Shown: positions 33,379 through 61,923 of the stretch, piece after piece
Position numbering within the stretch: position 1 is the first letter of the stretch
Layout of the letters: each line of letters starts with the position of its first letter
Virus record (IMG/VR): IMGVR_UViG_3300032229_000588
Location: 1-64,000 of that record
Origin: a virus
Length of the DNA stretch: 64,000 nt
Strand: one strand, 5' to 3'
The notes under the pieces: generated by a model
Told to the model about the DNA's origin: nothing
The model's input: only the letters and a program-made list of their open reading frames with translations
The model's database searches: none
Translations under genes and position numbers: made by a program

Positions 33379-35055
33379 TTAAGACTCTTTTCTTAAACTT
33401 CTTTCATAATGTTCAAATCTATCGTGTTCTGTTGGTGTCATCAGTAACAATCCAGGGTATAACTCACCTTTCTTAACCAACTGATACATATGACTCATCC
33501 AAGTCTGTTCAAATGGATGACCCCATGTTGTATCTAAAAACATTTTTTGATTTCCTGTTCTTGTAACTATCTGAGGCCAATTACAATAATAAACTTCACC
33601 TGTCACATATGGTATTCCTTGAAACGAATTAATTGAATCGTATACGGCTCTTGGAGCATTTGGGTCCAACCCTTGAACAGGTAATCTATTTTTGCCAGGC
33701 CAAAATTGCTCTCTAACATTTTGAGGTACATTATACCAAGACCATTGGGTTCCGTTGTCACCAAAAAATTCACTGTAATTAAGTTTTAAGAAATCAAAGT
33801 TTTCTTTTTTAACAATCTGTAATGTCTTTGAATATAAATTTGGGACGTATCTGTTAAAACCATTACGACATACCTCACCTTCGTGTGGGTAGAAAAACAT
33901 ATCATCTTCAAAGAACAAATAGAAGTCTAAATCAGTTTCATTTTGAAAATGTTCTGCAATCCATTGACGACCGCCACAAATACCTAAATTATCTTTTTTA
34001 ATATGTTCAAATCCATATTCTTCACATAACTCAGCATAATCGTCAAATGTTGATTTATCACTGGAGTTATCTAATAAAAACTTTTTAGTTTTTAATAAAT
34101 AATCTTTATCATACGCCTCCATTGACTCAATTAGAGTTAAGAATTGTTTTGGACTATTAAAAGTAATAACATATAAACCAACTTTATTCACATCTAAAGA
34201 ATTTGTAGTCCCTCTAATATTTTCTGATTTAGCAACTAAGTTATTGTTTTTTAAATCTTCGAAAAACTTACCAACTAATCCGTTTGGTTCAATTTCAAAA
34301 TAGTTAATTAAATCAGAATGTTTGTAACACATGATACTAAAGATTGATTCTTCAGTTCCCATGTAACCCTCATCTAACGTTGTCTTTAGTAAATTATAAT
34401 ATATTCCATTAATATCCGCAATTGAATGTTTTGGACCACCAAAAAACCCACCACGAGCAACTTTATTTACCTTTGCTCCCGCAAGAGAATTTAATTTATT
34501 ATATTCAAATCCATGAATTTCTCTTTCCGCGTCGTATGGGAAACAAATAAATGAAAACTTTGAAATGTATTTTGATAAATTATTAAAAACTTTATCATGG
34601 GTAAAATAACCTTGGTGAACGGTATTTGTTAATCCTCCATCAATCCAAAACATATATTCAGAATCAAATCTGTCCATAATTTTTGCATCATGTAATAAGA
34701 ATACTTTGGACATTACTAATGGATTATAATTTTCTAATCTACCTTGAGTCGATTCTTTTAACCATCCTGCCAAGTTTTGCCAGTTTTCATCAGTTCTGAT
34801 AGACTGAATCTTATCAAAAAATTCAGAATCAGTGAACCAAGATAATGGTCTTAAAACAAATTGGGTGTTGTCCGAACTACGTCTTTCAAATACAAACTTT
34901 TGAAGTTCTTCATCACCAAAAATTATCATATTCTCCTCACACTTTAAAAGTTGTTCGAACTTATCTAAATAATGTTGGAATGGTCTTGACCATCCTTCTG
35001 ATAATTCACCTCTACCGATGTCCCAAATTCCTGTTACTAATGTTATATTACTCAT
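33379..35055 (-). CDS. Two-domain glycosyltransferase: HtrL/YibB-like N-domain plus GT-A C-domain
   Basis: ITLVTGIWDIGR, YNPLVMSK, FWIDGG, GGFFGG, GTEESIF; second domain GLYVITFN...NLGICGGRQ...FFEDD. Confidence 0.7.
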   Translation of the reverse strand: MSNITLVTGIWDIGRGELSEGWSRPFQHYLDKFEQLLKCEENMIIFGDEELQKFVFERRSSDNTQFVLRPLSWFTDSEFFDKIQSIRTDENWQNLAGWLKESTQGRLENYNPLVMSKVFLLHDAKIMDRFDSEYMFWIDGGLTNTVHQGYFTHDKVFNNLSKYISKFSFICFPYDAEREIHGFEYNKLNSLAGAKVNKVARGGFFGGPKHSIADINGIYYNLLKTTLDEGYMGTEESIFSIMCYKHSDLINYFEIEPNGLVGKFFEDLKNNNLVAKSENIRGTTNSLDVNKVGLYVITFNSPKQFLTLIESMEAYDKDYLLKTKKFLLDNSSDKSTFDDYAELCEEYGFEHIKKDNLGICGGRQWIAEHFQNETDLDFYLFFEDDMFFYPHEGEVCRNGFNRYVPNLYSKTLQIVKKENFDFLKLNYSEFFGDNGTQWSWYNVPQNVREQFWPGKNRLPVQGLDPNAPRAVYDSINSFQGIPYVTGEVYYCNWPQIVTRTGNQKMFLDTTWGHPFEQTWMSHMYQLVKKGELYPGLLLMTPTEHDRFEHYERSLRKES

Positions 35056-35929
35056 AGATTCTGTTAAATTCTTCTAATATTCTAAAAAAGCTTTTATTTA
35101 CTGTGAACATTTCATCCGTCACTCCTGCGGGTGCATTATCTCTACACCACCAAATGTCAAAATGTTTACGTTCAAACAATTCACGATGATTTACATACAT
35201 GAGACTCATAACTTGTTCTTCATGTGGAAGACCCTCATCCTCAGTTAAAATGTCACTAACATATTTCTCAAACAAAGTTACAACCTCATCCCATTTATCT
35301 CTATGACCACCAAACATACCACCAATGATGTGAATACTTCTATCAAACTCTTTATACCATTTTGGGTCAACAGTTCCCGACCAATAGTTTCGGTCGTTCT
35401 CTTTACCAAGAAGTAAAAACTTATCGTTAGTGTCGGTTATCACGTTTTTAAGAAATTCATTATTGAATAGAGTACTTTCATAATATCTCGCTTGAGGATG
35501 TTCTCCAACAAGATATTTGTTTGGTATTAAACCACAATGTGAAAGACCAGCATCAATCCAATAATAGTAGTCGTAAGATTTATCTTCGTTCCACCACCAA
35601 TGGAATTTAGAGTATTGAATCTCAATACATCTATCTCCTTGTTTAATTTGGTCTACATTTTTTCTTAATTTGATTAAATCCCTGAATTTTGTTTCAGAAA
35701 TGTCAAATATTTGAAATTTTAATTTTTCAGGTGAGATTGAGTGTTCGTCGTAAAAGAAAGACTTTAACGATTCGATTTCACGGTCTGATGTATAACATAG
35801 GAAATCTGCGTCGGTCATCTTTAACAATGAAAGAAGACTATATCTGTAATGACCATTTCTACCTACCCTACCACCGAATTCTGTTCCGTGTAAATCACTG
35901 TATATTGATGTGATAAATTTAACTGACAT
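35048..35929 (-). CDS. HtrL/YibB-like putative glycosyltransferase
   Basis: IQYSKF, YYWIDAGL, IIGGMFGG, HEEQVM; paralogous to the N-domain of 33379..35055. Confidence 0.65.
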   Translation of the reverse strand: MSVKFITSIYSDLHGTEFGGRVGRNGHYRYSLLSLLKMTDADFLCYTSDREIESLKSFFYDEHSISPEKLKFQIFDISETKFRDLIKLRKNVDQIKQGDRCIEIQYSKFHWWWNEDKSYDYYYWIDAGLSHCGLIPNKYLVGEHPQARYYESTLFNNEFLKNVITDTNDKFLLLGKENDRNYWSGTVDPKWYKEFDRSIHIIGGMFGGHRDKWDEVVTLFEKYVSDILTEDEGLPHEEQVMSLMYVNHRELFERKHFDIWWCRDNAPAGVTDEMFTVNKSFFRILEEFNRIYE

Positions 35930-36653
35930 ATGTAAATTCTTTGTGTTGTTTATTTTTTTTCATTTCATCGGTTAGTGTTCCATGTAAATACTCTGAAGGT
36001 ATCTTACAAGGACTGTATAAATTCCAATTATATGTTTGAGTATAAAAATTATTGTATTGTCCTTGAGACACATCAGACCAACTACTCATTTGAGGAGCAA
36101 TTGGTAAAATTGGACAATAACTTTGTTTTAATGGGAGAATAAATTGATAGATGAAATCATCAATTGCATAATAATTTAAATTTTCAGGAATCTCCATTTT
36201 AAGAACTTCGTCGTATATTGACTCATGATATAATATCATATTTGTTGCAAATATACCCCTTTCGTGTTCTTTTTTTGGAGGTAAGTTTGTTATGTCTAAA
36301 AACAATGGTTGTTCTTCACTACGATTAACAGGTCGATTTAATGTTGGTGCAAAATTAATTATACCGAAATCAAACTCACCAGTTTCAGTTTCAATCTTAT
36401 TAATTAAATCTTTTGAATATGGTAAGAAGGTACAATCATCTTCTATTACCAAAACTGATTTATATCCACGTTCTTTAGCGATTTTAATAATTTCAGTATG
36501 AGACAAAGTACATCCACCATGATGATTTAAATCAACCGCTTTAAACAATTCATAGTCCCAACCCATATAGTCCAATTCTTTTTGGATATGTTCTAATCGG
36601 TCAGGTCGTCTTTCTAAATTAACGACAAACTTAGGTATACTTGTGATATTCAT
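35919..36653 (-). CDS. Glycosyltransferase family 25
   Basis: FVVNLERRPDRL, FKAVD, GCTLSH, VLVIEDD. Confidence 0.85.
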   Translation of the reverse strand: MNITSIPKFVVNLERRPDRLEHIQKELDYMGWDYELFKAVDLNHHGGCTLSHTEIIKIAKERGYKSVLVIEDDCTFLPYSKDLINKIETETGEFDFGIINFAPTLNRPVNRSEEQPLFLDITNLPPKKEHERGIFATNMILYHESIYDEVLKMEIPENLNYYAIDDFIYQFILPLKQSYCPILPIAPQMSSWSDVSQGQYNNFYTQTYNWNLYSPCKIPSEYLHGTLTDEMKKNKQHKEFTYVS

Positions 36654-37918
36654 TAACTAACGTGGTTGTGGGTTAATCTACCTGTGATTCTATCACACCA
36701 TCCTTTTGATTCTGAGTGAGGCCATACAACCCAATAAGATGGCATCTCATCTGTTTGGAATTCTCTCCATACTTTACAATATCCATCAGGGTCTCTCATG
36801 AAACCTGCAATTTCATTTTTGTCCGCATCTTTTCTAAATAAAGTTTCATCTTTATCGTTATGGAATGCAACAACCCAAAAATCATAATCTGTTTCAGGAA
36901 CTTGAGAATAACCAATATCAATGCAATGTTTGAACATCATACAGAAACTATCTTTCCATTCTTGTTCGGTTTCAAAATTATATGGGTTTGGTGGATAGTT
37001 TTTATCTAATGTGTGTTTGTCGATTGCTCTTTTTGAAAAAAGGATGCCTGTATATTTTTCATAATCAGTTAAGGTTCTAACAGGACCAAAACCATAAGGA
37101 CCATCATGACCCTCTTGAGTTTCACCATCCATACCAAACAACTTTCTATTTGTTAAATGTGAGTGAGTATTTCGTTGACCCCAAGTTTTGTCATCATCCC
37201 ACTGTTTTGTTCTACCTTTACGAGTGTACTCATGGTAAACAACAGGGATGTGTGGGTGGAATAAATCGTAACCCCAAGTGTAAGCTCTTGCAGCAATTGA
37301 AATCTCTTCTCCGTGGAAATAATATTCAGGGTTGTGTTGAACTTCAGTTGAGAATTGTCCTAATGTAAAACAGAAGTGAGCCGAGTAGAATCTTGCAGTT
37401 ACAGGTTTTGTCATTTCTCTCCAACCTGGAATTGTTTCAGGTAAGAAGAACACCGCACCTTCAGGAATAAAACGGTCAAACACCATTCTCCAAGCGTCTT
37501 GAGCTCTCCCTGCAGGGTCATTTTCGGGGTCAAAAGAAGGAACGTAGCCCGTAAGTAGAGGCTTCTTATACCCGTCCTTCTGTAACCCCTTTATCATTTT
37601 GATAAGGATATCATCCCAATCCTTAACAAATCTCATGTGAGAATCAATTTGTAGTGTGTATGTTTCACCCTTGTAAAGTTGTTGAACTTGATGTCTTGCC
37701 CAACATACACCTTTGGCATCTTGATAAGGAATATCTAAGATTCTAAATCTTTTGTCTTTTCTGTATTCATCTAAGTTATCAAACCCATCTTCGTCGCTAT
37801 ATTGTCTTGCAATACCGATAACAAGGTTATTTGGTTTCTTGGCATTTGCCAACATGTCTTTAATTGTTGGGACCAACTGTGGGTCTCTGTACGATGCGAT
37901 TTGAACGAATATTTTCAT
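36653..37918 (-). CDS. GT60-family polypeptide alpha-N-acetylglucosaminyltransferase-like enzyme
   Basis: IFVQIASYRDPQL, AKGVCWARH, LQIDSHMRF (DSH motif), LLTGY, YFHGEEI, TWGYDLFHP, VVYHEY. Likely start is ATG 37918, because the longer ORF overlaps a terminator. Confidence 0.85.
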   Translation of the reverse strand: MKIFVQIASYRDPQLVPTIKDMLANAKKPNNLVIGIARQYSDEDGFDNLDEYRKDKRFRILDIPYQDAKGVCWARHQVQQLYKGETYTLQIDSHMRFVKDWDDILIKMIKGLQKDGYKKPLLTGYVPSFDPENDPAGRAQDAWRMVFDRFIPEGAVFFLPETIPGWREMTKPVTARFYSAHFCFTLGQFSTEVQHNPEYYFHGEEISIAARAYTWGYDLFHPHIPVVYHEYTRKGRTKQWDDDKTWGQRNTHSHLTNRKLFGMDGETQEGHDGPYGFGPVRTLTDYEKYTGILFSKRAIDKHTLDKNYPPNPYNFETEQEWKDSFCMMFKHCIDIGYSQVPETDYDFWVVAFHNDKDETLFRKDADKNEIAGFMRDPDGYCKVWREFQTDEMPSYWVVWPHSESKGWCDRITGRLTHNHVS

Positions 37919-37944
37919 GTAATAATATTTTATACATAAAAATA

Positions 37945-37974
37945 AAAAACCCTCCACGAAGGTGAAGGGTTTTT
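37945..37974 (-). terminator. Intrinsic terminator after the Thr/Pro-rich gene array
   Basis: The - strand reads AAAAACCCTTCAC-CTTC-GTGGAGGGTTTTT; the G-U pair works only on the - strand. Confidence 0.75.
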
Positions 37975-37995
37975 GAGTATATTAATTTTGTTTTT

Positions 37996-39111
37996 TTAGA
38001 TACATGCGTTAGGGTCAACTCCAGTAACTTCACCCAATCCTCCTGATACTATGAACGCTGCAGTTCCATTAGAGTAGTATCCGTCAATAACAGGTACTGT
38101 TAATGCTGTATCGAAGTATAAGTACTCACCCGCGTTTGGACCAGGTCCTCCTGCTACTGTACCATAGATTGTATTAGGTGCTGAAATAAAGTCAGTACAT
38201 GCATCATTTGCCGTTGCTCCTGTTCCTAAACTATAAGTGTAATAACCAAATGTTGCCGTTGGTGTTGATGTAACTGTTGGTGTTTGTGTTGTAGTTGTTG
38301 TTACTGTTGGAGTTATTGTCGGTGTTAATGTGTTTGTCGGTGTTGGTGTTAAGGTTGTACATAATGAACCAAACCCTGTAGGAACACCAAAGTCATCCAA
38401 TTCAGTAACATAATTACCATTTTTATAGAAACCACTCAAATCAACAGTTGAATTACCTGTTGGTACATTCCAGAATTCAGTAGATAAATCAAATTGTGGG
38501 TTATTACCGTAAATTGTTACTGTTGAGTTATATTGACCACAAGCCTCATCTTGAGTTGTACCAGTATAAACTGTGAAAGCAACTCTAGCAATTGTTGGAG
38601 TTGGTGTCGGTGTTGCCGCTGCAGTTCCTGTTTGTGTATTTGTTGGAGTTATACTTGGTGTTGGAGTTACAGGTGAAGTTCCTGTAGGTGTAGGTGTTGG
38701 AGTTACTGCCGCAGTTCCTGTGTTAGTTGGTGTTGGGGTTACTGCCGCAGTCCCTGTTTGAGTTTGAGTTATTGTTGGTGTTGGTGTTGGAGTATGAGAT
38801 GCGGTAACACTTGGTGTCGGTGTATTAGTTGCAGTAACACTTGGTGTTGGTGTATTAGTTGGTGTAACTGATGGGGTCATTGTAGGTGTTGGACTTGGGT
38901 AAACAGGTGGGAATACACCTTCATTTACCAATACAATACTACTTTGATATAGTTGTGCAATTGAATACGTGTTATTGATTAACCAAATATTTTTGGTTTG
39001 GTTAGGGTACAATTCTACCTGGTATTCCCACATAGAATCATCACATCTTCTATAATTGAAGTTGATTATAGTAGAACCTGTGTTCGTCAAAGTATATTTA
39101 CTACATGCCAT
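37996..39111 (-). CDS. Mucin-like Thr/Pro-rich modular protein (probable virion appendage)
   Basis: N-terminal [10 protein letters not shown] module, two TPT tracts and two Cys-bracketed modules of about 75-80 aa; no signal peptide. Confidence 0.75.
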   Translation of the reverse strand: MACSKYTLTNTGSTIINFNYRRCDDSMWEYQVELYPNQTKNIWLINNTYSIAQLYQSSIVLVNEGVFPPVYPSPTPTMTPSVTPTNTPTPSVTATNTPTPSVTASHTPTPTPTITQTQTGTAAVTPTPTNTGTAAVTPTPTPTGTSPVTPTPSITPTNTQTGTAAATPTPTPTIARVAFTVYTGTTQDEACGQYNSTVTIYGNNPQFDLSTEFWNVPTGNSTVDLSGFYKNGNYVTELDDFGVPTGFGSLCTTLTPTPTNTLTPTITPTVTTTTTQTPTVTSTPTATFGYYTYSLGTGATANDACTDFISAPNTIYGTVAGGPGPNAGEYLYFDTALTVPVIDGYYSNGTAAFIVSGGLGEVTGVDPNACI

Positions 39112-39181
39112 CGTTTTGTTTTCTTTTAATATAAATACTTTATACAGGTTAAAGTTTACAACTAATTATTTTATTTTTTAA

Positions 39182-41143
39182 TTACGGTGTATAACTTGTC
39201 CTGATGTCAAGTTTATTTGTTGGTTGAGGTGGAACTAATGAAGAAATATAAAGACCTGTAAATGTATAAGTTCCACTTGCAGTAATTGTTTGAGTATACT
39301 GAACTCCATTAGAATCTGTCACAGTAAGGTCAATAGTACCCGATGGAACTGACTGTAAATCAATACCAACCTGAGCAGTATAGTTATTACTCCAATTTGA
39401 TGTAGTAAATCCTGAATTAAATTGTGAAAATAATAATGGGAATCCATCACCACTTGCGGGTTGTCCAAGAGGTGAGGAACCTGTAACACCTGAAATGGTT
39501 ACTCCTGTGATTGTACTTGCACTTGAACTATCGTAGTTTTCAACGTAAACAAATGTTGTTGGTTCAGGTAATAAACCTAACGATAATAAAATGGAATTAC
39601 CATATAATTCATTCATTGTTGACGATGTAAATGTTGATATGTTGGCAACATATGCGTTTATACTCACCAATGTTGCCCCACTAACTTTCTTATAAGCCAT
39701 CGCACTATAACTTGGTGAAACCCAAGTTGCTAATGATTTAGCTCCTGTTGATGTAGAAATTGGTGTTGCTGGTGTTGTGGTACTACTACCATTTATTGAA
39801 ATCGAAGTTCCAAATCCGCTATTAGTTAAACCTGAAGTGATTGGATTACTTAACACTTGATTAACCCATATAGTATTACCTGCAAATACAGTACCAACAG
39901 TATTTCTTACATTATATGCCGTTAGTTCTGAATGATTAAATCCTGAAGGATATGATGACCATAATCTAGCCCCCGATACAAAGCTACCTCCACTACTCAC
40001 ATAATTATATAATGCGGTACTCAAAGTTGATGAGTATGGACTTCCACTCAATGAATCTATGGTGTACATAACAACTGCATCATAATTCGAAGGTGTTATT
40101 CCATCACTACCTGTATAAGATGCGTCTAAAGTAACTGCCGAGAATGTTGATGAATACCCCGTACTACTTAAGTAATTTTGTATTGATATTACTTCATCCG
40201 CAGCATTTGGACCTCCAATATATAATACATTAAATGCTGAAGTTGCAGTTGGAGTTGGTGTTGGGGTTGTTGTTGTAGTATTAGTTGGTGTGACCGCAGG
40301 TGTTCCCGTATTAGTTGGTGTTGGTGTGACATCAGGTGTTCCCGTATTGGTTGGTGTTGGTGTGACATCAGGTGTTCCTGTATTGGTTGGTGTTGGTGTT
40401 ACAGACGCAGTCCCTGTGTTAGTTGGAGTTGGTGTGACATCAGGTGTTCCCGTATTGGTTGGTGTTGGTGTTACAGACGCAGTCCCTGTGTTAGTTGGAG
40501 TTATTGTAGGGGTTGGTGTTTGAGTTTCAGTTGCCGTTGGAGATGCACCAATTGTACCTGTTGGAGTTGGGGTCGAAGTTTCAGTACTTGTTGGAGTTGG
40601 GGTCGAAGTTTCAGTACTTGTTGGAGTTGGTGTTGCACCTGCAGTTCCTGTATTAGTTGGTGTTGGTGTAACATTAGGCGTTCCTGTAACTGTTGCCGTT
40701 GGTGTCGGAGTTGATGTTTCAGTTGCGGTTGGGGTTGCCCCTATAGTTGCGGTTGGTGTTGAGGTTGCGTTTGGTGTACCCGAATTTGTTGGTGTATTTG
40801 TTGGTGTACTTGTATTCGTAGGAGTAACTGCTGGTGTTCCTGTATTAGTAGGTGTGACTGAAGTAGTCGTAGTTTGTGTTGGGGTATTACTTGGGGTTAC
40901 ACTTGGCGTAGGTGTAGGTGTTGGTGTTACATAAACTGGTGGAAATACACCATTATCCTCCAAAATTAAATTTGTATTATACAATGGAGCGATTGAAAAA
41001 GTATCATCCATTAACCAAATATTTTTGGTTTGATTAGGGTATAACTCTACTTGGTATTCCCACATAGAGTCATCACATCTCCTGTAATTAAAGTTTATTA
41101 CGGTAGTTCCAGTATTTGTTAAAGTATATTTACTACAAGCCAT
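39182..41143 (-). CDS. Mucin-like Thr/Pro-rich modular protein, paralog of 37996..39111
   Basis: Near-identical N-terminal ~70 aa, a Thr/Pro tract of about 230 aa, and an unrelated C-terminal region. Confidence 0.75.
40285..40505 (-). repeat. 36-nt coding tandem repeat (TPTPTNTGT[AS/PD/PA]V), about 6 copies
   Basis: Seen in DNA (e.g. ttggtgtgacatcaggtgttcccgtattggttggtg) and in the protein. Confidence 0.85.
40561..40620. repeat. Exact 30-nt tandem duplication
   Basis: ttggagttggggtcgaagtttcagtacttg occurs twice in tandem. Confidence 0.9.
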
Positions 41144-41167
41144 CTTAATTTTTTATTGTTAAATATT

Positions 41168-43264
41168 TTATATTATAATTGATTCTACCGCAATAGTCCC
41201 TCCACTTAAGAAAGTCACTTTTTGACTACTATCCGCAGCATCTAACACAACATTTACAGGAATATTTGTGTAAAGTATTGGATTTCCACCTGTACCACCT
41301 GAAAAAGTTAAGTTTTGATTAAAGTTGGTAAATGTAAAATTATTATTTCTACATTGACCTGAAGTATCTAAATCGGCAAATGTTGTACCATTCATCCCAT
41401 AAGAAATTTTATTATTTATAAAAAAATCTTGAATTACGTTAAACGTAAATAAGTCACCAATCGTATTGTCGTAGAAATATTCTCCAATGTCGTTACCTTG
41501 GAATCCATTTCCAATTACATTACCTCTATAGTTTCCGCCTCCGTAACCAAAGTCACTTGCAATTGTATTACTTGTAAAGTAGTCACCAATTTGGTTATAT
41601 GAAAAATTGGTTGAGATTGTATTACTATAAAACTCGTGTCCGACTTTGTTAAATTGTGTGTTACCTGTAAAAGTATTATTACGGCAACCACTTTGAAATG
41701 AATTATGGTCGAAGCTAAAATTTTGAATATTTGCAGCATCACCTATATTATTACTATAGAAATCAGACCCTAAATTATTTTGTGTAACGTTGTGGTAAAA
41801 AATATTATTGTAAAGATTTGGTCCACCAGTATTGGTCTGAAAAGACCCGTAGAAAGTGTTTGTATAAACAGAATCACCAAGTACATTATTGTCGAAGTTT
41901 TGTTTAATGATGTTACCGTTAAATACATTACCAATTTGATTGTCATCGAAAGTACCCGTAATAGTATTATCAGTGAAATTGGTGCCAATTACGTTTCTCG
42001 CAAAACCATAATGAATTAAATTCTGATTAAAATTATTACCAATTTTATTATTAACAAAATCATTATCACTAAAAGTAAAAAAGTTATTTTGGAATCCCCA
42101 ACCTACTTGATTGAAATCAAAATCTTGTCCATCGTTGTCTCCTAACATATTATAGTCAAAATTACCAACAATGGTATTCCCTTGCATATCACATTCTATA
42201 AAGTTGTATGTAAAGTCAGAACCAACTATATTATTATCAAAATTATTTGTTATAATGTTGAATTGGAAAAATGGACCGCAGGTAGAACTAGTCATAAAAT
42301 TGTCAAACGTGTTACCAACAACATTACCTCCAAATGTCATATCTTCATAGTTACCATTCAAAAACACGTTATTAGACAAAATGAAATCATTATAATTTTG
42401 ATTATCTCCCAAATATGTGTTGAAGTTTTGATTATTGTTGAATGTGTAATATTCTGAGGAACCTGTATATGACGGTGTAGGTACGTTACATTGGAATGGT
42501 GACCTAAGTCCTCCTGAAAGACCTCGTGAATAAAATCTGTTACTTGTAGAATAGAAGGTTGTACCTGTTACTGTCATATTTGTCGCGTCGGCAATGGTTA
42601 AGATTTCATAATACGCGAAGCCACCAATAAGATTAGTGCCTGGAGTAAATATACCTAAAATATTACCAACTGAAAAAGTGTTATCAAAATCAGTACCGAC
42701 TCCAACAACATTACCTGAACCATCTATTGATACCGTACCAGTATAATAATCTTCAGATAAAAATGCTTGATATCTGATAAACTGAACTGCTCTGAAATCG
42801 TACTCCGCTCTGTTATTATTTTGGTCAATTCTTTCAGTAATTCTTCCTTTTGCAGGTGAACCTGTTACTTCAGTTGTACTCCACGTAAAATCATATGATA
42901 TTTTATCTTTAGGATAAAGTGTGGAATATACAGTTGGGGAGAATTCATTTGCTGATATTGCCAACAATAAAATTGGTTCTGTAGTTCCTGTTTTATAATT
43001 TCCTGTTGTTATTGCAACACCCTCATTAGTATAATTTGGTTGGTCATAACAAGTTTGGAAATCTGTCATTAAATAATATTGACCAACAACTAAATTACTA
43101 GTATTAGATGCTATAGTTAATCCTGAATACGTAGCTTGACTATAGTTAATACCTGAAAAGGCAATGTGATAAGTCGTACCCGCCTCTTCAACTGGGATTA
43201 AAAGGTTATTTGTTGTATAATCTAATGCCGTTAATTCACCGATTGTTTTTCCTGTTAGTGCCAT
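41168..43264 (-). CDS. Tail fibre/spike-like protein with Asn-rich beta-helix repeats
   Basis: N-terminal KTIGELTAL anchor-like motif; many repeats of the form F.xNxIGxxFxxNxI in the C-terminal half. Confidence 0.65.
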   Translation of the reverse strand: MALTGKTIGELTALDYTTNNLLIPVEEAGTTYHIAFSGINYSQATYSGLTIASNTSNLVVGQYYLMTDFQTCYDQPNYTNEGVAITTGNYKTGTTEPILLLAISANEFSPTVYSTLYPKDKISYDFTWSTTEVTGSPAKGRITERIDQNNNRAEYDFRAVQFIRYQAFLSEDYYTGTVSIDGSGNVVGVGTDFDNTFSVGNILGIFTPGTNLIGGFAYYEILTIADATNMTVTGTTFYSTSNRFYSRGLSGGLRSPFQCNVPTPSYTGSSEYYTFNNNQNFNTYLGDNQNYNDFILSNNVFLNGNYEDMTFGGNVVGNTFDNFMTSSTCGPFFQFNIITNNFDNNIVGSDFTYNFIECDMQGNTIVGNFDYNMLGDNDGQDFDFNQVGWGFQNNFFTFSDNDFVNNKIGNNFNQNLIHYGFARNVIGTNFTDNTITGTFDDNQIGNVFNGNIIKQNFDNNVLGDSVYTNTFYGSFQTNTGGPNLYNNIFYHNVTQNNLGSDFYSNNIGDAANIQNFSFDHNSFQSGCRNNTFTGNTQFNKVGHEFYSNTISTNFSYNQIGDYFTSNTIASDFGYGGGNYRGNVIGNGFQGNDIGEYFYDNTIGDLFTFNVIQDFFINNKISYGMNGTTFADLDTSGQCRNNNFTFTNFNQNLTFSGGTGGNPILYTNIPVNVVLDAADSSQKVTFLSGGTIAVESIII

Positions 43265-43288
43265 AGTTTTTTATTTTATAAATAGTTT

Positions 43289-44665
43289 TTAAAATTCAAG
43301 ATATTCGTTAGTACCAACACTCAAATATTCATCATTACCAATTAAAATTGCATTTATAATAATTGGGTCATTTGTTGGTGTTGGTGTTTGAGTTAATGTT
43401 GGTGTTGGTGTCTGTGTTGCACAAAGTGAACCAAATCCTACAGGATTACCTTGTGAATCAAGTTGTACCACATAACTAACATTTTTATAATATCCCGTCA
43501 TGTTAATAGTTGAATCTCCATTCAATACGTTCCAAAATTTTGTTGATAAATCAAACTGAGTATTATTACCATAAATGGTAGTTGACGGGTTAATTTCATT
43601 ACAAGCGTCGTTTTGTGTAACTCCTGAATAAACCGTAAATGCAATTCTACTATGAGTTGGTGTCGGAGTTGGTGTTAAACCTACAGTTACTGTTGGTGTA
43701 ACAGTTTGAGTAATGGTTGGTGTTGGAGTATTTGATGTTGTAGTTGTTGGTGTTGGAGTGTTGGATGATGTATTAGTCGGTGTTGGAGTATTAGATGCCG
43801 TGTTACTTGGTGTGTTTGTTTGAGTTGGGGTATGACTTGGAGTTACACTTGGTGTTGGAGTATTACTTGCAGTATTGGTTGGAGTTACCGTTGGTGTTGG
43901 TAAAGGACAACCACCTAAATACGTAATTGTTCCGTCTCCATCGGCAATTATAATTTCCTCCGCACAGAATATTAATGTTTGGAATACGTCTAAGAAGAAA
44001 TCAAATACAAATCCGTCACAATCTCTACCAACAAAAGAGGTTTGGTTTGTCACACCACCAAATAATAAGTAAGTTTTACAAATTGAATTAGTGGGTGTTT
44101 GAGTATTAGTTGGTGTGTTAGTTGGAGTTGTTGTGTTAGTCGTAGTGACTGTCGGAGTTGTTGTTGGCGTTGACGTGTTAGTCGGAGTAACTGTTGGCGT
44201 TTCAGTATTGGTTGGAGTGACGGTCGGAGTTGATGTTTCAGACGCAGTAATACTTGGAGTAATTGACGGTGTTGGCGTGTTACTTGCAGTTGCGGTCGGA
44301 GTCAATCCTATGGTTACTGATGGAGTTGGTGTTTGAGTTACAGTTGGAGTTACAGTTGGTGTTTCAGTAGTTGTTGGTGTTGGAGTTAATGTTGAGGTTG
44401 GGGACGGACTTAATCCTGGTGTTAATGTTGGTGTTTGAGTATTTGTTGGTGTAGGACTTGGTGTAGGACCTGGTACATTTACTGAATATGTGTATCCATA
44501 AGTTGGAACATAACAGTTGTAAATACCATAATAATAGTCGGAAATATAATTAAATGGAAATACTTGGGTACCTAAATCAATCGTACCTCCACTATCAGGA
44601 AGATACGTCACTTCTGTGGTCTGACCACTTAAATTATCACTTAAAATTCTTACCCCTATTGCCAT
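43289..44665 (-). CDS. Mucin-like Thr/Pro-rich modular protein
   Basis: Three TPT tracts separating a 4-Cys module and a module homologous to one in 37996..39111. Confidence 0.75.
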
Positions 44666-44692
44666 GTCTATAAATACGTATTTGTTTTCATT

Positions 44693-45247
44693 TTAACCAC
44701 AAATTCCAGTATTAACTACTAATGTTCCTGAAAGTTGTATAAATGTTGCTCCGTCAGATATTGTCGAATTTGCATTTATTGGTGGGATTGTTAATGACAT
44801 ATTACCGTAAACATTATCACCAGGACTTAATTCACTGAAAGGTATTAAAGTATAAATTGTAACATTTGAAGGAGTTGCAAACATGGTTACATCTTGACAC
44901 ACATCTTGATAATAACCTCCACTCCATAAATTATATGTGTAGATAATAACAGGAGTTCTTGTTGGTGTTGGTGTAAATGATGGTGTTGGTGTAACAGTTG
45001 GAGTTACAGATGTTTGTGTTGGTGTTGGAGTAATTGATGGAGTTGGCGTTGTTGAAGGACAAAGTCCCATAATTACCACATCCAAAGGAGCCGCATAATC
45101 CTCAACATATAAATCATTAGCACAAACGTAACTTGTTTGTAAAGGTTCAACGCCAGTTACACTGACGATACCTGTACATCCTGTCCATCTGTAAAAACCT
45201 TCTTGGACATTATTGTAATTTGTTATTCTATAGTAGTCGCAACTCAT
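44693..45247 (-). CDS. Small Thr/Pro-linker protein with two Cys modules
   Basis: MSCDYYRITN...WTGCTG...YVCA...GLCP, a TPT tract, then YTYNLWSGGYYQDVC...GICG. Confidence 0.75.
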   Translation of the reverse strand: MSCDYYRITNYNNVQEGFYRWTGCTGIVSVTGVEPLQTSYVCANDLYVEDYAAPLDVVIMGLCPSTTPTPSITPTPTQTSVTPTVTPTPSFTPTPTRTPVIIYTYNLWSGGYYQDVCQDVTMFATPSNVTIYTLIPFSELSPGDNVYGNMSLTIPPINANSTISDGATFIQLSGTLVVNTGICG

Positions 45248-45251
45248 TTGA

Positions 45252-47867
45252 TTAGATGAATAAACCGTTAAAGGTGACTAAGTTATACTGTAATGAGGTG
45301 ATATTTTCACCTTCAATACAATTAGATTCGTTAATTGTCACCGTGGTTCCAGGTGATAATGCACCGTACGCGGCAGTAAATGTGTTGTTGTAGAATGTAT
45401 AGTTATCAGGGTCGGCAACCATAGTTCCCCCTTTATATAATGTAACTCTAATTGTTACAGGATTTGAACCAAGTTCTCCATACCAAAATGCTTTAGAATT
45501 CATTACTATTACATTTTCACCAGGATATTGAGATTTAAATTCAATTAAGTCAATTAACACGGATTCAAATCCTGTACCCGTATTATCTCCACCCCATGTT
45601 AAAATTGGATTACCCGTTGTTGGCCATTGTTCAGAACAACACCAACCAATAGAGTCAGTCAATGTTGTTTGACCTATATCAGGTACAGTAACTTTTGTTC
45701 TTGTATCTAAATCTATACCGTCAGTAAACGCATAAGTTAATACGATATAATCGGCATCAAATGTGAAACCACCAGGTACAAATGGTATTGAAGTTGGAGT
45801 TGGTGTTAGAGTTGGTGTAGGGGTTTGAGTTACTCCATTTGTTGGAGTTGGTGTAGGTGTTGGAGGAATAGTTGGAGTTGGTGTAGGTGTTGGAGGAATA
45901 GTTGGTGTGGGTGTAGGTGAACTAGTTTGTGTTGGTGTTGGATTAATTAATTCGTAATACAAATCATTCGCAGGAATACTAATATAATGCAAATCATTTG
46001 AAGGTATGAATATTCTACAATTAGGGCAATCAGGGTCTAATAGATTGTATTTTAATTTTAATAATCTAAAGTTGTGTTTGATTTGAGACGCGTTTAATGG
46101 TTCGGTATACATTCTAAATGCACTAACGTCACCAATCATACTACCACCAAAATATTCTTCTAATTTAATATGAGTAGTTAAACCTGAGTAAATTGTATTA
46201 TCTAAATCGTGAGTTGTTAAACATTCTGGGTCTTGTTGATAAACCATCTCTTCAATTGTTTCAGGACATACACCTGAGAATGTTAGGTTATCGTGAAGAC
46301 CTTGAGTTCCTCCACCAATTGAAATGTTATATCCAACTCCAATTTGTTTTTCTTTTGGAGTGTTCAATAATCTTGGAATAATTTCTTCAAAGTTTTCAGT
46401 AACCATGAATAGCTTTCCATTCACATAAAACTTAAGTGTACCCAATCGATACTTTTGTTCTTCAGTCCACATGTCATTGAACGTAACAACTTCAGTCGAT
46501 GCTGGGTCATAAGGTTGTTCACGAGTGATTGGTGGTTCAATTAATGAAACACTTCTATTTTCAAGGGTTGCATAATAAACATCCTTAACAAGTAGACCAA
46601 GTCCCCCCTTATCATATAAGTCACATTTATCTAACCATTCATATCTTTGGAAGACAGCGTCAATCTGAACCCAATGTTCTACGTTTGAATATGTGGTTCC
46701 TGAACAATTGTCAAAAATACCTCTTGTTGAACACCATTCGGTTAATGATGTTCCTGTCACATAAGTAAGTCCTGTCAAACAAGTTCCTGTACTTTCACAT
46801 CCACCTGTTATCCTATATGTCTTAACACATAGTCTTGGACTACCTGTATCACCACTTAATCTTAATGATAGGGCGTTTGAAACCTCATCATATAATGGGT
46901 CTTTTTCAGGGTATTCCGCCTTAGATTCACAATCACATGGACAACCACAAGTACAATGTGTTATTGTCCCACCTGAAGGTTGGTATACCTGCATACAATC
47001 TGATGATGTGTTGGCAGTACTTGCACAACCACAAGTGTGCATACAAGTTAAACCTGACGTAACTCTTGTGTAACCCGTGTCTTGTTTTGGACTACCATCG
47101 GCGTAATGGTAAAATTTATTTTCGGCTCTTGCCCCCATGTAAAAGAACGTACCCTTATTGTCGGGGTATCTATTGTTAAGACCTCCTGATGTATCACCAG
47201 TCCATCTATATCTTAACATGAATTCTGCTGTCCAACCTAAAGAAACTCTTTGTGGGAAAACTTGGTAATCGTATCCTGGTATTTTATAAAATCCTTGGAA
47301 GAATCCACCTTTTAAATTGGCAACGTATCCGATATCTCCACCAACATTTTGATACGATAAATCGTAGGTATATGAATCATCATCCCATAATCTATTTTCA
47401 GTTGTTGTAAAACCTGTGATAGGGTGAAGTTTCATTCTCCTATCATATTTGTATCGACTAAACTTGTCTGAAATATTTGTATATAATCCTGTTGTAATTT
47501 CGATTGTCTCACCCGACATGTTTTGAACAAGTCCGTTATCAATACCCGTTAACCCAACATCACATAATTCTGTTACGATTGGACAAAAATTTGGGTCAAC
47601 GTCATCAGGGTTCCAATAATTTTCAGAAACGATTGTTTGATAGTCAAAAGAACATGCAGATGTTTGACATAATGTTGTTCCTGAACTATTGAAATCAAAC
47701 TTAAATGGCATTCTGTTTCCGTCCAATTCGCCAATTAATAATGGCGAAAAAACGACTTCTTGGTCATAGTCTCTCTCGTCCGACGCTAAACAAATGTCGG
47801 TGATTTCATTGACAGGTTTTATCCCCCATCTACGAAAATTATACTGATTAATATTCTGATATGCCAT
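45252..47867 (-). CDS. Large Cys-rich LamG/ConA-like virion protein with Thr/Pro linker
   Basis: GWTAEFML, HWVQIDAVF, LKFYVNGKL, GSMIGDVSAFRMYTEPLNASQIKHNF are LamG-like strands; Cys-rich insert (CMHTCGC, CTCGCPCDC); TPT linker and C-terminal domain. Confidence 0.65.
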   Translation of the reverse strand: MAYQNINQYNFRRWGIKPVNEITDICLASDERDYDQEVVFSPLLIGELDGNRMPFKFDFNSSGTTLCQTSACSFDYQTIVSENYWNPDDVDPNFCPIVTELCDVGLTGIDNGLVQNMSGETIEITTGLYTNISDKFSRYKYDRRMKLHPITGFTTTENRLWDDDSYTYDLSYQNVGGDIGYVANLKGGFFQGFYKIPGYDYQVFPQRVSLGWTAEFMLRYRWTGDTSGGLNNRYPDNKGTFFYMGARAENKFYHYADGSPKQDTGYTRVTSGLTCMHTCGCASTANTSSDCMQVYQPSGGTITHCTCGCPCDCESKAEYPEKDPLYDEVSNALSLRLSGDTGSPRLCVKTYRITGGCESTGTCLTGLTYVTGTSLTEWCSTRGIFDNCSGTTYSNVEHWVQIDAVFQRYEWLDKCDLYDKGGLGLLVKDVYYATLENRSVSLIEPPITREQPYDPASTEVVTFNDMWTEEQKYRLGTLKFYVNGKLFMVTENFEEIIPRLLNTPKEKQIGVGYNISIGGGTQGLHDNLTFSGVCPETIEEMVYQQDPECLTTHDLDNTIYSGLTTHIKLEEYFGGSMIGDVSAFRMYTEPLNASQIKHNFRLLKLKYNLLDPDCPNCRIFIPSNDLHYISIPANDLYYELINPTPTQTSSPTPTPTIPPTPTPTPTIPPTPTPTPTNGVTQTPTPTLTPTPTSIPFVPGGFTFDADYIVLTYAFTDGIDLDTRTKVTVPDIGQTTLTDSIGWCCSEQWPTTGNPILTWGGDNTGTGFESVLIDLIEFKSQYPGENVIVMNSKAFWYGELGSNPVTIRVTLYKGGTMVADPDNYTFYNNTFTAAYGALSPGTTVTINESNCIEGENITSLQYNLVTFNGLFI
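45841..45900. repeat. Exact 30-nt tandem duplication in a Thr/Pro linker
   Basis: gttggagttggtgtaggtgttggaggaata occurs twice in tandem. Confidence 0.9.
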
Positions 47868-49214: not shown

Positions 49215-49508
49215 ATGTCAAGTCAAATTACTGTAGATTTAAGTCAAACAGAACCAAACGCACTTACTGCGATTGCTGACCAAGAAAGAGCAAAATTAAT
49301 TCCTAAAAATGATTTTAACGCTGTTGGTAATGAATACTCATCAGTTAACCGTGACGCACTCGCTGACGGTGACTCAATGGGTAGAGGTACTGGTGCGTTC
49401 TTGGACGTTTATAACGTAAATGCTGGTACTATTGATGATATCATTGAAAGAAAAAATGATATCAAAATTAATAAATTTAACTCATCAAACGTATATCCTA
49501 ATTTCTAA
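49215..49508 (+). CDS. Hypothetical protein
   Basis: 97-aa ORF coupled to the next gene (TAATG). Confidence 0.65.
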   Translation: MSSQITVDLSQTEPNALTAIADQERAKLIPKNDFNAVGNEYSSVNRDALADGDSMGRGTGAFLDVYNVNAGTIDDIIERKNDIKINKFNSSNVYPNF

Positions 49509-49990
49509 TGAAACTAAAAGGGGCATTAAAAAGTTTAATTTGTGAAATCGCTTCTTTAGATAGTATTGTTGATGCTATAAAGAACAGACAAGTCGTAATC
49601 ATTTACTACGATGGTGATGAGCCAGGTGGTAGAGGTATTCGACAAATTGAACCTGTATGCTTAGGAGTTAGTAAAGCGGGAAATAAAGTTTTAAGAGCTT
49701 GGGATAGTGAGGGAGCGTCTCACACTGGTTATAAAGGGGAACAACCATTACCTGGGTGGAGATTATTTAGATTGGATAAAATACTATCAAACAAACCAAC
49801 TGGTGAGGTTTACAATGAACCTAAACCTGGTTATAATTTTAATGGAGATAAAAGTATGGTTAGTGTTATTATAAATGCAAAATTTGATAATAACCCTCAG
49901 ACACCTCAACCACCACAAGAACAACCAACAACACCAACAGAAGAACCAACTTCCGACATTAACCCACAAACACCTGAAGAAGAAATATAA
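49508..49990 (+). CDS. Stand-alone WYL-domain protein
   Basis: IVDAIKNRQVVIIYY...RQIEPVCLG...VLRAW...GWRLFRLDKI; no HTH domain. Confidence 0.8.
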   Translation: MKLKGALKSLICEIASLDSIVDAIKNRQVVIIYYDGDEPGGRGIRQIEPVCLGVSKAGNKVLRAWDSEGASHTGYKGEQPLPGWRLFRLDKILSNKPTGEVYNEPKPGYNFNGDKSMVSVIINAKFDNNPQTPQPPQEQPTTPTEEPTSDINPQTPEEEI

Positions 49991-50681: not shown

Positions 50682-51896
50682 ATGTCGAAAATTAAAATCT
50701 TAGTAGTACCATCCGATAGAACAGGAGTTGGTAAATTTAGGTCGGTAGACCCTCACGTCTTTTTACAGAATCTTTATGGTGATGATTTCCATGTGGACAT
50801 CGATTATGAGCCACCTTATGATGATATGTCATATTGGTCTCAATACCAAATTGTTGCTTGTCACAGAAGTATTGGTCCTGATTTTGAAAAGGCGAATGAA
50901 CTTATCAAAAAACTTACGGAAAACGGTATAATCACAATTGTCGATATTGACGATTATTGGATGCCAGGTAAAGAACACCCAATTCACGATATCATCAGAT
51001 TCAATAAGATTAACGAAAAAATTGTAGCGAATCTTAAAGTCGCGTCTTACGTAACAACTACAACTACGTTATTTGCAGATGAGATTAAAAAATTCAATAA
51101 GAATGTAGTTGTATTCCCAAATGCGATTAATCCACAAGAACCACAGTTCAACGAACCAACTTTAGAATCTGATAAAATTAGGGTTGGATGGTTAGGTGGT
51201 TCATCTCACTTACATGACTTACAGTTATTGGATTCACCATTAGGTAAAATAACTCACTTAAAAGACAAGTTACAATTTGTTTTATGTGGGTTCGATACTA
51301 GAGGGACTGTAACCGAAATTAACCAACAAACAGGTGAACACAAAAAAAGAGATATTCTTCCACACGAAACGGTATGGGCACAATACGAAAAGATATTTAC
51401 CCAAAACCATTTGTTAGTTTCTGAAGACTACAAAAAATATCTTCTTAAATACACTCAAGAAAAATATCCAAATGAACTTGACGAATCTTATGTAAGGGTT
51501 TGGACACAACCTGTAACATCTTACGCTAAGAATTATTCAAAGTTTGACGTATCTTTGGCTCCAATCAAAAATACAATGTTTAACCGAATGAAATCTCAGT
51601 TAAAGGTAATTGAAGCAGGCTTCTATAAAAAAGCTATTATCGCATCCGATTTAGGACCATATACAATAGATTTGAAACATTGTTTGAATCACGGTAACTT
51701 TGTTGATGGTAATGCGATGTTGGTCGATGAAAATCGAAACCACTCAGATTGGGCAAAGTATATCAAGAAATTAGTTGAAAATCCTAGTATGATAAAAGAC
51801 ATGGGTGAAAGATTGTATGAGACAGTAAAAGACACTTACGACTTAAATGTTGTTACAAAAAACAGAGCGGAATTTTATAAATCATTAATTAAATAA
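50682..51896 (+). CDS. GT-B (GT4-like) glycosyltransferase
   Basis: VDIDDYW, VFPNAI, RVGWLGGSSHLHDL, DVSLAP...FNRMKSQLKVIEAG, IIASDLGPY. Confidence 0.85.
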   Translation: MSKIKILVVPSDRTGVGKFRSVDPHVFLQNLYGDDFHVDIDYEPPYDDMSYWSQYQIVACHRSIGPDFEKANELIKKLTENGIITIVDIDDYWMPGKEHPIHDIIRFNKINEKIVANLKVASYVTTTTTLFADEIKKFNKNVVVFPNAINPQEPQFNEPTLESDKIRVGWLGGSSHLHDLQLLDSPLGKITHLKDKLQFVLCGFDTRGTVTEINQQTGEHKKRDILPHETVWAQYEKIFTQNHLLVSEDYKKYLLKYTQEKYPNELDESYVRVWTQPVTSYAKNYSKFDVSLAPIKNTMFNRMKSQLKVIEAGFYKKAIIASDLGPYTIDLKHCLNHGNFVDGNAMLVDENRNHSDWAKYIKKLVENPSMIKDMGERLYETVKDTYDLNVVTKNRAEFYKSLIK

Positions 51897-51898
51897 TC

Positions 51899-52354
51899 AT
51901 GGACTCAAAAAAAGGTAGGATAGGGTTTACCGCGGGTAACTTTGATTTATTACATCCAGGTTACATTTACACATTTGAATCAGCAAAAGAAAACTGTGAT
52001 TATTTTATAGTTTTCTTACAAAGAGACCCATCTTTAACAAGATTCACAAAATATAAACCTGTAGTTCCTCTATATGAACGATACAAAGTTTTAATGTCAA
52101 TAAAGTACATTGATGAGGTTGTTTGTTATGATGATGAGGATGACTTATTACGTCTTATTGAATTTTACAAACCTGACGTAAGAATTCTTGGTGATGACTA
52201 TATCGGTAAAAGATTTACTGGTGACCACCTACCAATTGATGTTGTCTACACTACTCGTGCTCACGGTTGGTCTACAACAAAAATCAAAGATTTAATTACA
52301 ATCCAAACTTTAAAACAAAATCCAGAAATCACTAATAATATAGAAAATGTTTAA
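51899..52354 (+). CDS. Cytidylyltransferase (TagD/RfaE-like)
   Basis: AGNFDLLHPGY, K.PVVPLYER, IDEVV, GDDY, RAHGWSTT. Confidence 0.85.
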   Translation: MDSKKGRIGFTAGNFDLLHPGYIYTFESAKENCDYFIVFLQRDPSLTRFTKYKPVVPLYERYKVLMSIKYIDEVVCYDDEDDLLRLIEFYKPDVRILGDDYIGKRFTGDHLPIDVVYTTRAHGWSTTKIKDLITIQTLKQNPEITNNIENV

Positions 52355-53668: not shown

Positions 53669-53814
53669 GTACAAAAGAAAAATTAGAAAAGGAATTAAAT
53701 AAGGTTAAACAACAATTAGTGATGAAAGATGCTAATGATGGTTGGTGGAATCTTTACATGGAAGAACGGAAAAGTTTTTTAGAAAAATTAATTAAAGAAT
53801 TAGATAACAAATGA
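53665..53814 (+). CDS. Small hypothetical helical protein
   Basis: Not in the ORF track. 49 aa (MSTKEKLEKELNKVKQQLVMKDANDGWWNLYMEERKSFLEKLIKELDNK) with ATGA overlaps at both ends. Confidence 0.65.
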   Translation: MSTKEKLEKELNKVKQQLVMKDANDGWWNLYMEERKSFLEKLIKELDNK

Positions 53815-57968: not shown

Positions 57969-57969
57969 T

Positions 57970-58779: not shown

Positions 58780-58781
58780 TC

Positions 58782-59615: not shown

Positions 59616-59616
59616 T

Positions 59617-60426: not shown

Positions 60427-60428
60427 TT

Positions 60429-61037: not shown

Positions 61038-61040
61038 TTA

Positions 61041-61910: not shown

Positions 61911-61923
61911 AACAAACACAAAT

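Follow-up and report, generated by a model that had tools for sequence, protein, structure and literature searches.

Does a phage glycosylate mucin-like proteins of its own with enzymes of its own? The question is raised by a 64,000-nucleotide stretch of viral DNA (the window), which is the first 64 kb of the 77,456-base IMG/VR record IMGVR_UViG_3300032229_000588 and comes from an uncultured freshwater phage. Ten co-oriented genes on the minus strand of the window, running from 47867 down to 33379, form an array encoding long Thr/Pro (TP) tracts followed by four enzyme genes, the first of which encodes a glycosyltransferase (GT) of family GT60. An earlier note, made from the letters of the window, had proposed that this locus is a phage-encoded mucin-type O-glycosylation system. 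The enzyme families, their fold kinship and solubility, the synteny and the genomic coupling across phages and bacteria were all observed in our analysis and, together with the glycoprotein staining of a related phage, they support that proposal in part. We put the probability that the GT60 enzyme primes the Thr/Pro tracts of phage proteins at about 0.6.

The product of 36653-37918 (-; 421 aa) is the proposed initiating enzyme, a predicted polypeptide HexNAc-transferase with a GT-A domain (residues ~1-300) followed by a β-rich C-terminal domain (~325-414). It matched PF11397 with an E value of 1.2e-66 and 226 bits (cut-off 21) over profile positions 2-43 and 94-349, and phrog_24687 with an E value of 7e-167. 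Alignment with 20 diverse homologues (35-47% identical) revealed that D92-S93-H94, H229 and E204-E205 are invariant, giving a DxH-type motif with a conserved His 135 residues downstream; the spacing of these metal-binding residues (D-x-H...H) is presumably the same as in GalNAc-T2. The AlphaFold model of the protein (pLDDT 93, pTM 0.89) is closest to the animal and Toxoplasma polypeptide GalNAc-transferases (ppGalNAc-Ts; family GT27). Ranks 1-41 of the Foldseek listing were all ppGalNAc-Ts, and after re-alignment so were the top 29 (Z 19.1-22.3, rmsd 3.3-3.9 Å over 257-281 residues), with the best other GT-A enzyme at Z 16.8. These relatives came from the fold search only, as sequence searches of the PDB with the protein and with the 20-sequence profile retrieved none. 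No ricin-type Pfam match was found, and the β-rich domain at 325-414 is of uncertain kind. A predicted complex of the enzyme with Mn and a 50-residue TP-tract peptide (score 0.00, mark 0.32) speaks neither for nor against transfer. The profile match and the model together confirm the assignment to GT60 made in the earlier note. GT60 is known as the protist polypeptide α-GlcNAc-transferase family, which is related to GT27 and lacks a ricin domain (PMC8724618), and its Trypanosoma cruzi member places α-GlcNAc on Thr of mucins (PMC3769586). A literature search for GT60 or PF11397 in phages or bacteria found nothing relevant.

The presumed acceptors are encoded immediately upstream. Five Thr/Pro-tract genes lie at 37996-47867 (-), with single tracts of 25-244 aa that total 762 residues, comprising 304 Thr (40%), 165 Pro (22%) and 54 Ser, and TPT is the most frequent triplet. 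Dense, long Thr/Pro tracts of this kind, here spread over five proteins, are of the acceptor type seen in mucin-type systems. The five genes and all their coordinates were as first described, although the longest tract measures 244 aa rather than about 230 aa. Between the tracts are small globular modules, some of which are common to several array proteins at 62-78% identity. No transmembrane-like segment was found in any of the ten array and enzyme proteins, in line with the reported lack of membrane anchors.

The array opens with an 871-aa protein (45252-47867, -), in which a tract (637-702) separates an N-terminal domain of ~636 aa from a C-terminal domain of phrog_24956. An Atlas lead connects the N-terminal domain with Laminin_G_3 clusters (concanavalin/LamG-like fold), and these 636 residues have no match in cultured phages. 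The next protein (184 aa; 44693-45247, -) carries a tract (58-105) between two small Cys-containing modules and is kept in relatives of the clade at 55-67% identity. It is followed by a 458-aa protein (43289-44665, -) with a beads-on-a-string layout of three tracts (59-198, 252-340 and 412-436), whose residues 340-415 form a module that shares 62% identity with positions 176-251 of the 371-aa protein described below. A 698-aa Asn/Gly-rich repeat protein (41168-43264, -) stands inside the array without a TP tract; its likeness to a fibre or spike is one of composition only, and it has no Pfam or PHROG match. The longest tract (65-308; 42% Thr, 20% Pro) belongs to a 653-aa protein (39182-41143, -), between a 64-aa N-terminal module and a C-terminal globular part of ~345 aa. 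That N-terminal module is 78% identical to the one of the 371-aa protein (37996-39111, -; tracts 65-174 and 248-287), whose gene is the last before the enzymes.

The coupling of GT60 with Thr/Pro-tract genes is real, although not universal. In the clade of the window, each of the 38 loci that extend 6.5 kb or more upstream has one to four TP-tract genes before GT60 (43-686 tract residues), a count that alone shows little because these phages are close kin. In 160 further loci (80 diverse viral ones and 80 from bacteria or metagenome-assembled genomes, MAGs), TP-tract genes cluster beside GT60 and thin out or vanish with distance. Among the 80 viral loci, whose GT60 proteins are 38-74% identical, the density of TP open reading frames (ORFs) per 100 kb is 16.6 within 1 kb of GT60, 2-5 out to 7.5 kb and 0.7 at 7.5-10 kb. 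When the viral GT60 proteins were clustered at 70% identity, a TP gene lay within 3 kb in 23 of 78 clusters and at 5-10 kb in 2 of 57 (P 8e-5); at 55% identity the corresponding near and far figures were 9 of 23 and 0 of 22 (P 0.0015). The bacterial loci were drawn from the relatives, at least 559, that a profile scan covering each prokaryote species by a single genome had given, and a TP ORF was defined there by a tract of at least 40 aa. Within 5 kb of GT60 we counted 23 such ORFs (672 kb), compared with none at 5-10 kb (514 kb), a contrast with P about 2e-6, or 6e-5 when collapsed to 17 lineages. Represented among these loci are Gemmatimonadota, Acidobacteriota, Verrucomicrobiota, Planctomycetota, Actinobacteriota, several proteobacterial classes and Bacteroidota.

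The same association is seen in whole genomes. Altogether 524 viral contigs carry a GT60 protein of the window type, one of which (G001, a 309,177-base record rated 100% complete) is a complete relative of the window phage. Counting a (Thr-Pro)3.5 codon pattern with one mismatch allowed, we found 57 matches in G001, 41 in a second relative (G002), 55 and 68 in the cultured Xanthomonas phages Xoo-sp13 and XacN1, and 40 in the Stenotrophomonas phage CM1, all of which encode GT60, whereas the reversed pattern used as control gave 0-3. Among the relatives of XacN1 that lack GT60, those closest to it by polymerase have next to none (RsoM2USA 0, XbC2 0, Phosso 1, Vibrio phage 2.275.O 0). Co-occurrence and synteny of GT60 with Thr/Pro genes were seen in the clade, in other phage lineages and in bacteria of many phyla, and co-occurrence also across whole genomes. 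All those checks suggested in the earlier note that are computational in nature thus turned out in favour of its proposal.

Many of the bacterial TP ORFs adjoin GT60 or the homologue of a second enzyme of the window locus, the 558-aa protein described below, on the same strand. Several of those directly upstream and co-oriented encode little more than a twin-arginine (Tat) signal and almost pure TP repeats (L134:4189-5064, L140:6940-7452, L156:6880-7476, L183:6819-7457, L161:11563-12243 and L173:8460-10001). Two of these, in Halieaceae MAGs (L156 and L183), have in addition a C-terminal hydrophobic anchor and a basic tail resembling a PEP-CTERM-type sorting signal. Judged by their sequences, such proteins have no obvious role besides carrying something on the tract, and they look like bacterial 'mucins' that would be modified before export. 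Other arrangements were also noticed. In two Gemmatimonadaceae MAGs, GT60 is immediately preceded by a gene (L116:8510-9235 and L119:9230-9955) for a putative PqqD/RiPP-recognition element, a hydrophobic stretch and a TP tract, and in several Burkholderiales genomes (L177:12267-15131, also L152, L153, L162 and L182) the strand opposite to GT60 encodes, 1-4 kb away, a VgrG-like type VI secretion spike that contains a Thr/Pro tract.

If the enzyme glycosylates protein, the acceptor might still be something other than Thr in the tracts, for example hydroxyproline as in the Skp1/Gnt1 system, Ser/Thr of capsid or tail-tube subunits, or host proteins. Gnt1, the founding member of GT60, modifies hydroxyproline, Pro makes up 22% of the tracts, and G002 encodes a 2-oxoglutarate oxygenase of the prolyl 4-hydroxylase (P4H) type; in mycobacteriophages the glycans sit on the C-termini of capsid and tail-tube proteins, according to the summary in PMC12619734. 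However, the oxygenase gene of G002 is ~80 kb from its cassette, and no P4H-type oxygenase was found in G001, XacN1 or Xoo-sp13. The earlier note had seen no prolyl hydroxylase and had favoured Thr for that reason, and the lack of one in the complete relative and in the Xanthomonas phages leads us to the same preference. Moreover, the bacterial operons pair GT60 with nearly pure TP-tract proteins, and Thr outnumbers Ser 304:54 in the window tracts, as in the mucin acceptors of T. cruzi (PMC3769586). Another acceptor is thus improbable in our judgement, and Thr of the tracts is preferred.

What might extend the first sugar? GT60 is followed on the same strand by three further enzyme genes. The first of them (35919-36653, -; 244 aa) encodes a GT25-family enzyme, as had been noted, and matched PF01755 in two stretches (E 2.3e-12, 47.7 bits, cut-off 24). 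The other two had been described as HtrL/YibB-like, which stands for the 558-aa protein (33379-35055, -) by its PF09612 match at residues 3-252 (E 1.2e-20, 74.7 bits, cut-off 24.1) and for the 293-aa putative GT (35048-35929, -) by profile comparison only. The latter has no Pfam match, aligned with the HtrL-like domain of the 558-aa protein at an hhalign probability of 93.6% around a common GGxFGG...EE region, and is 27-29% identical to its homologues in Xoo-sp13 and XacN1 (ORF332). Since the 558-aa protein scores below the NCBIfam equivalog cut-offs, it is a member of the HtrL/YibB family and not a YibB orthologue. It also carries an additional GT2-like GT-A domain (~290-558) with DNS..D and EDD motifs, in which N330, S331 and E383-D384-D385 show almost no variation, and this raises the number of GT domains in the cassette from four to five. 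Its model (pLDDT 89) consists of two GT-A domains and is best matched by the dual-GT-A enzymes LARGE1, LH3, mimivirus R699, K4CP, PmHS2 and COLGALT1 (E 1e-10 to 1e-7). The likeness to alternating-sugar polymerases among these is one of modelled architecture only, and we treat it as a lead.

The 558-aa enzyme is a conserved partner of GT60, with a homologue in 168 of 240 GT60 loci, and in the window clade the two genes are the fixed bookends of a hypervariable tailoring set. The GT25 and 293-aa genes stand between them in 47 of 75 clade loci. In the other 28 GT25 is replaced, and two to eight other genes encoding GT10, GT1-like, GT25 and PLOD-type GTs, FkbM methyltransferases and O-methyltransferases intervene. 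This turnover is seen among phages whose GT60 proteins are at least 86% identical, resembling that of O-antigen loci, which suggests that the glycan is subject to diversifying selection.

A second and larger glycan island (50682-62997, +) lies on the other side of the array and diverges from it. It encodes a GT-B enzyme, a cytidylyltransferase, a GT2_5+GT4 fusion, a UDP-Glc/GDP-Man dehydrogenase and a GT2, as well as an FkbM methyltransferase, GT11, GT10, an O-methyltransferase and two short-chain dehydrogenase/reductase (SDR) epimerases/reductases, one of which is nearest to GDP-fucose synthase. Exonuclease and dUTPase genes are interspersed. The distal half of the island (56608-62997) is absent from G001. 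The hypervariable cassette, the two GT domains of the 558-aa enzyme and this island all go beyond the earlier note. Between the array and the island is a gene for a small WYL-domain protein (49508-49990, +; E 1e-4).

Another explanation would be that the tracts are unmodified linkers and that the cassette and island build or remodel a non-protein glycan, be it the lipopolysaccharide (LPS) or capsule of the host or a free or lipid-linked glycan that aids infection or keeps other phages out. LPS-core loci gave the GT25 and HtrL/YibB families their names, the 558-aa model resembles the polysaccharide polymerases K4CP and PmHS2, the island has genes of O-antigen type (GT11, GT10, SDRs, methyltransferases), and half or more of the GT60 loci have no TP-tract gene nearby. 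Nevertheless, the nearest structural relatives of GT60 are all polypeptide transferases. Among the annotated window genes we saw no flippase, polymerase or initiating phosphoglycosyltransferase, and the island proteins, like those of the cassette, have no transmembrane segment, so the membrane-bound machinery of such a pathway was not found. A non-protein glycan also leaves unexplained both the distance-dependent excess of TP genes beside GT60 and the whole-genome contrast, and XacN1 virions, to which we now turn, carry glycoproteins. We regard this explanation as unlikely and retain glycosylation of the Thr/Pro tracts, although for the extending enzymes a non-protein acceptor such as LPS or capsule is conceivable.

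The cultured phages XacN1 and Xoo-sp13, together with the Stenotrophomonas phages CM1 and RAS14, encode GT60 proteins 45-50% identical to that of the window, homologues of the 293-aa and 558-aa proteins in one cassette, and many TP-tract proteins. In XacN1 and Xoo-sp13 the cassette consists of GT60, a carbamoyltransferase, the 293-aa homologue (286 aa in XacN1), a 246-aa ORF and the 558-aa homologue (546 aa in XacN1). Compared with the window, the XacN1 group has the carbamoyltransferase in the place of GT25, no TP array directly upstream and no fucosyltransferase island. The nearest TP tract is in a 3313-aa gene, which follows the baseplate-wedge genes and in XacN1 and Xoo-sp13 is convergent to the cassette. 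Purified XacN1 virions showed at least two Schiff-positive glycoprotein bands, for which the authors proposed the phage's own GTs as makers (PMC5852040).

The DNA of the phage, hypermodified by glycosylation of hydroxymethylated or hydroxylated pyrimidines against restriction, would be a wholly different target for the cassette. Phage GTs often act on DNA (PMC13326640), the cassette adjoins the DNA polymerase gene here and lies near replication genes in XacN1, and both the carbamoyltransferase of the XacN1 cassette and the dUTPase of the second island would suit such a role. On the other hand, the thymidylate-synthase homologues of G002 and XacN1 score as canonical ThyA enzymes above the TIGR03284 cut-off (the G001 homologue scores just under the cut-off of its best model), and XacN1 DNA is cut by BssHII, NaeI and SpeI (PMC5852040), whose sites contain C. 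In its fold GT60 goes with the polypeptide transferases, no DNA-modifying role is known for fucosyltransferases or O-methyltransferases, and the TP coupling would be left unexplained. A search for TET/JBP dioxygenases gave no match, but none in control genomes either, so it carries little weight. DNA modification is accordingly very hard to credit as the function of the cassette, and the tracts are left as the preferred target.

Are the TP proteins part of the virion? Three observations hint that they are. First, the motif TATTTAT stands 11-41 nt upstream, in the sense orientation, of 15 of ~70 window genes, compared with four genes for the antisense control. The genes concerned (starts at, for example, 23064, 15514, the 29850 side, 47867, 44665, 43264 and 39111) are mostly structural or belong to the array, and include the tail sheath gene, an adaptor-like gene, a 1690-aa giant gene and four array genes, those for the 871-aa (16 nt), 458-aa (11 nt), 698-aa (20 nt) and 371-aa (26 nt) proteins. 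A fifth array gene has TATTTAA upstream. From its distribution the motif is a possible late promoter, and the pattern would fit late co-expression of array and structural genes. Second, the C-terminal domain of the 871-aa protein recurs in crAssphage gp62 (a 'putative tail protein'), in cyanophage S-SSM7 and in XacN1 ORF372 (1088 aa), where it follows a 258-aa TP tract. The third is the staining of XacN1 virions. We are somewhat less confident that the TP proteins are virion appendages than that GT60 primes them.

Several points weigh against this interpretation. The case for what GT60 does in phages and prokaryotes is built from sequence and predicted structure. The Schiff-positive signal of XacN1 is known as bands, with no protein assigned to them, and the array proteins match no known virion protein family over their main domains in Pfam, PHROG or cultured phages. 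The GT60 gene itself has no TATTTAT motif; it may be read through from the 371-aa gene. The 558-aa enzyme and the GT25 and HtrL families are better known from LPS and polysaccharide synthesis. As for the coupling, a TP gene is nearby in only about 30-50% of GT60 lineages; roughly one in two of the diverse viral loci and two in three of the bacterial loci have none in the vicinity. No more than two independent GT60-positive lineages stand behind the whole-genome contrast. Of the seven TP-tract genes of G001, five are remote from the cassette (four of them at 72-89 kb, the fifth at 195 kb), so adjacency is neither necessary nor universal. Finally, Thr/Pro linkers are common in secreted bacterial enzymes without any GT60.

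With these points taken into account, the mechanism that we propose is as follows. In the cytoplasm of the infected cell, the soluble GT60 enzyme would add the first sugar, most likely an α-HexNAc from a UDP-sugar, to Thr of the Thr/Pro tracts of phage-encoded modular proteins, among them the five encoded just upstream of it. The two-domain enzyme (33379-35055) would then extend this primer, and strain-variable tailoring would be provided by GT25 and the HtrL-like enzyme, joined by what the second island encodes in fucosyltransferases, methyltransferases and nucleotide-sugar enzymes. Mucin-like glycoproteins would result, with stiff glycosylated stalks setting their small globular modules apart, and these glycoproteins would probably be late-expressed appendages of the virion. 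Given that transmembrane segments, flippase, polymerase and phosphoglycosyltransferase were all unseen, the route would be cytoplasmic and free of a lipid carrier. The sugar transfer, UDP-GlcNAc as the donor, the acceptor residue, the order of the enzymes and the virion location are inferred, and so are the purposes suggested in the earlier note, namely stiff extended linkers, protection from proteases and engagement of receptors.

The phage behind the window is an uncultured freshwater jumbo myophage of ~300 kb. Its tail sheath, baseplate hub, head-tail adaptor-like, helicase and family-B DNA polymerase genes identify it as a jumbo myophage, and the 26% completeness of the record (CheckV) implies a genome of roughly 300 kb. 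It has no close cultured relative, since megablast of the 15-kb region against cultured phages gave no match and its DNA polymerase has only distant matches there (≤27% identity). Downstream of the tail module are two giant ORFs without TP tracts (2765-10129, 2454 aa, and 10442-15514, 1690 aa; both -). The window clade is very abundant in metagenomes. Contigs with a 70% identical GT60 were binned with Saprospiraceae MAGs and, in G001, a protein adjoining a TP-tract gene has SprB repeats, which together hint at a Bacteroidota host. That protein, itself without a tract and with weak 'virion structural protein' and Hoc-like matches, neighbours a second cluster of four TP-tract genes (72783-88723; L092-L093), which lies among very large ORFs (up to 1459 aa) ~70 kb from the cassette and received no structural-protein assignment from Pfam or PHROG. 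Elsewhere in G001, a 149-aa protein with a 40-aa TP tract (195096-195545; L098:15096-15545) matched endolysin PHROGs (E 5e-6), so tracts occur also in a non-fibre protein.

Relatives of the enzyme are numerous. Among 8,000 candidates scored, more than 7,000 clusters (90% identity) passed an E value of 1e-5 with the GT60 protein, and its homologues make up 4,534 representative clusters. In a library of 1.8 billion proteins many of the relatives reach great length (2461 aa at most) and match in as many as five stretches, which makes them multi-copy GT60 proteins, and BFVD includes relatives in Megaviridae and Pandoravirus.

These data raise a broader idea, which we put forward tentatively and hold to be possible rather than probable: GT60-led cytoplasmic Thr/Pro glycosylation may be a widespread, undescribed system of prokaryotes and phages, with a soluble initiator, a possibly polymerising two-domain partner that would give a proteoglycan-like product, hypervariable O-antigen-like tailoring, Tat-exported bacterial 'mucins' and possibly the prokaryotic root of eukaryotic mucin-type O-glycosylation. 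If the mechanism proposed above is right, a very abundant group of freshwater jumbo phages, and many bacteria, build mucin-like glycoproteins with soluble enzymes of their own. Mucin-type glycosylation, whose initiation by GT27 and GT60 has been treated as a eukaryotic invention (PMC8724618), would gain a testable prokaryotic origin, and the puzzling Thr/Pro-rich 'beads-on-a-string' proteins of large phages would be accounted for. Hypervariable surface glycans would be a new axis of phage diversity, bearing on adsorption, stability and recognition, and the enzymes would provide a compact cytoplasmic toolkit with which to produce O-glycoproteins in bacteria. The question can be put to direct test, since cultured carriers exist (XacN1, Xoo-sp13, CM1 and RAS14).

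Of the known systems, the protist GT60 enzymes (T. cruzi pp-α-GlcNAcT, the Golgi enzymes of Dictyostelium and Gnt1) share with the phage enzyme PF11397 and a DxH-type GT-A domain, and their acceptors are dense Thr-rich, Pro-containing mucin domains, like the presumed phage tracts (PMC8724618, PMC3769586). Gnt1 acts on Skp1 as a soluble cytoplasmic protein, as the phage enzyme would to judge from its predicted lack of transmembrane segments. Unlike the protist enzymes, the phage enzyme is encoded by a virus, has thousands of prokaryotic and viral relatives, carries an extra β-rich C-terminal domain of ~100 aa and has a two-domain GT and a hypervariable set of tailoring genes as its partners, and it is known from genes alone. 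The ppGalNAc-Ts of GT27 are its nearest solved structures (Z 19-22, rmsd about 3.5 Å, about 270 residues), yet they are only 12-15% identical to it, and it has no match to their ricin lectin domain and neither a signal anchor nor a Golgi to work in.

To our knowledge, mycobacteriophages are to date the only phages in which self-glycosylation of the particle has been demonstrated by experiment. There, cytoplasmic O-glycosylation of virion proteins is attributed to phage GTs whose genes lie close to structural ones (Freeman et al., 2023, as summarised in PMC12619734). These GTs do not belong to GT60, and the glycans are carried by short extensions at the C-termini of capsid and tail-tube subunits. 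In the window phage, by contrast, the proposed acceptors are long internal tracts in accessory fibre-like proteins, and the set of glycan genes is much larger. For the published 'moraphages', to which the window phage might conceivably belong, four core GT groups have been reported (PMC12619734). Giant viruses offer a further parallel, as chlorovirus PBCV-1 for its capsid and mimivirus for its fibrils encode soluble GTs and nucleotide-sugar enzymes that act without endoplasmic reticulum or Golgi (in work as cited in PMC5852040). The window phage differs from them in its bacterial host and its initiating enzyme. Even so, the model of its 558-aa enzyme resembles mimivirus R699 and also LARGE1, the enzyme that lengthens a glycan carried by dystroglycan on its mucin domain. 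The concept set out here joins the GT60 mucin glycosylation of protists with the self-glycosylation of phages.

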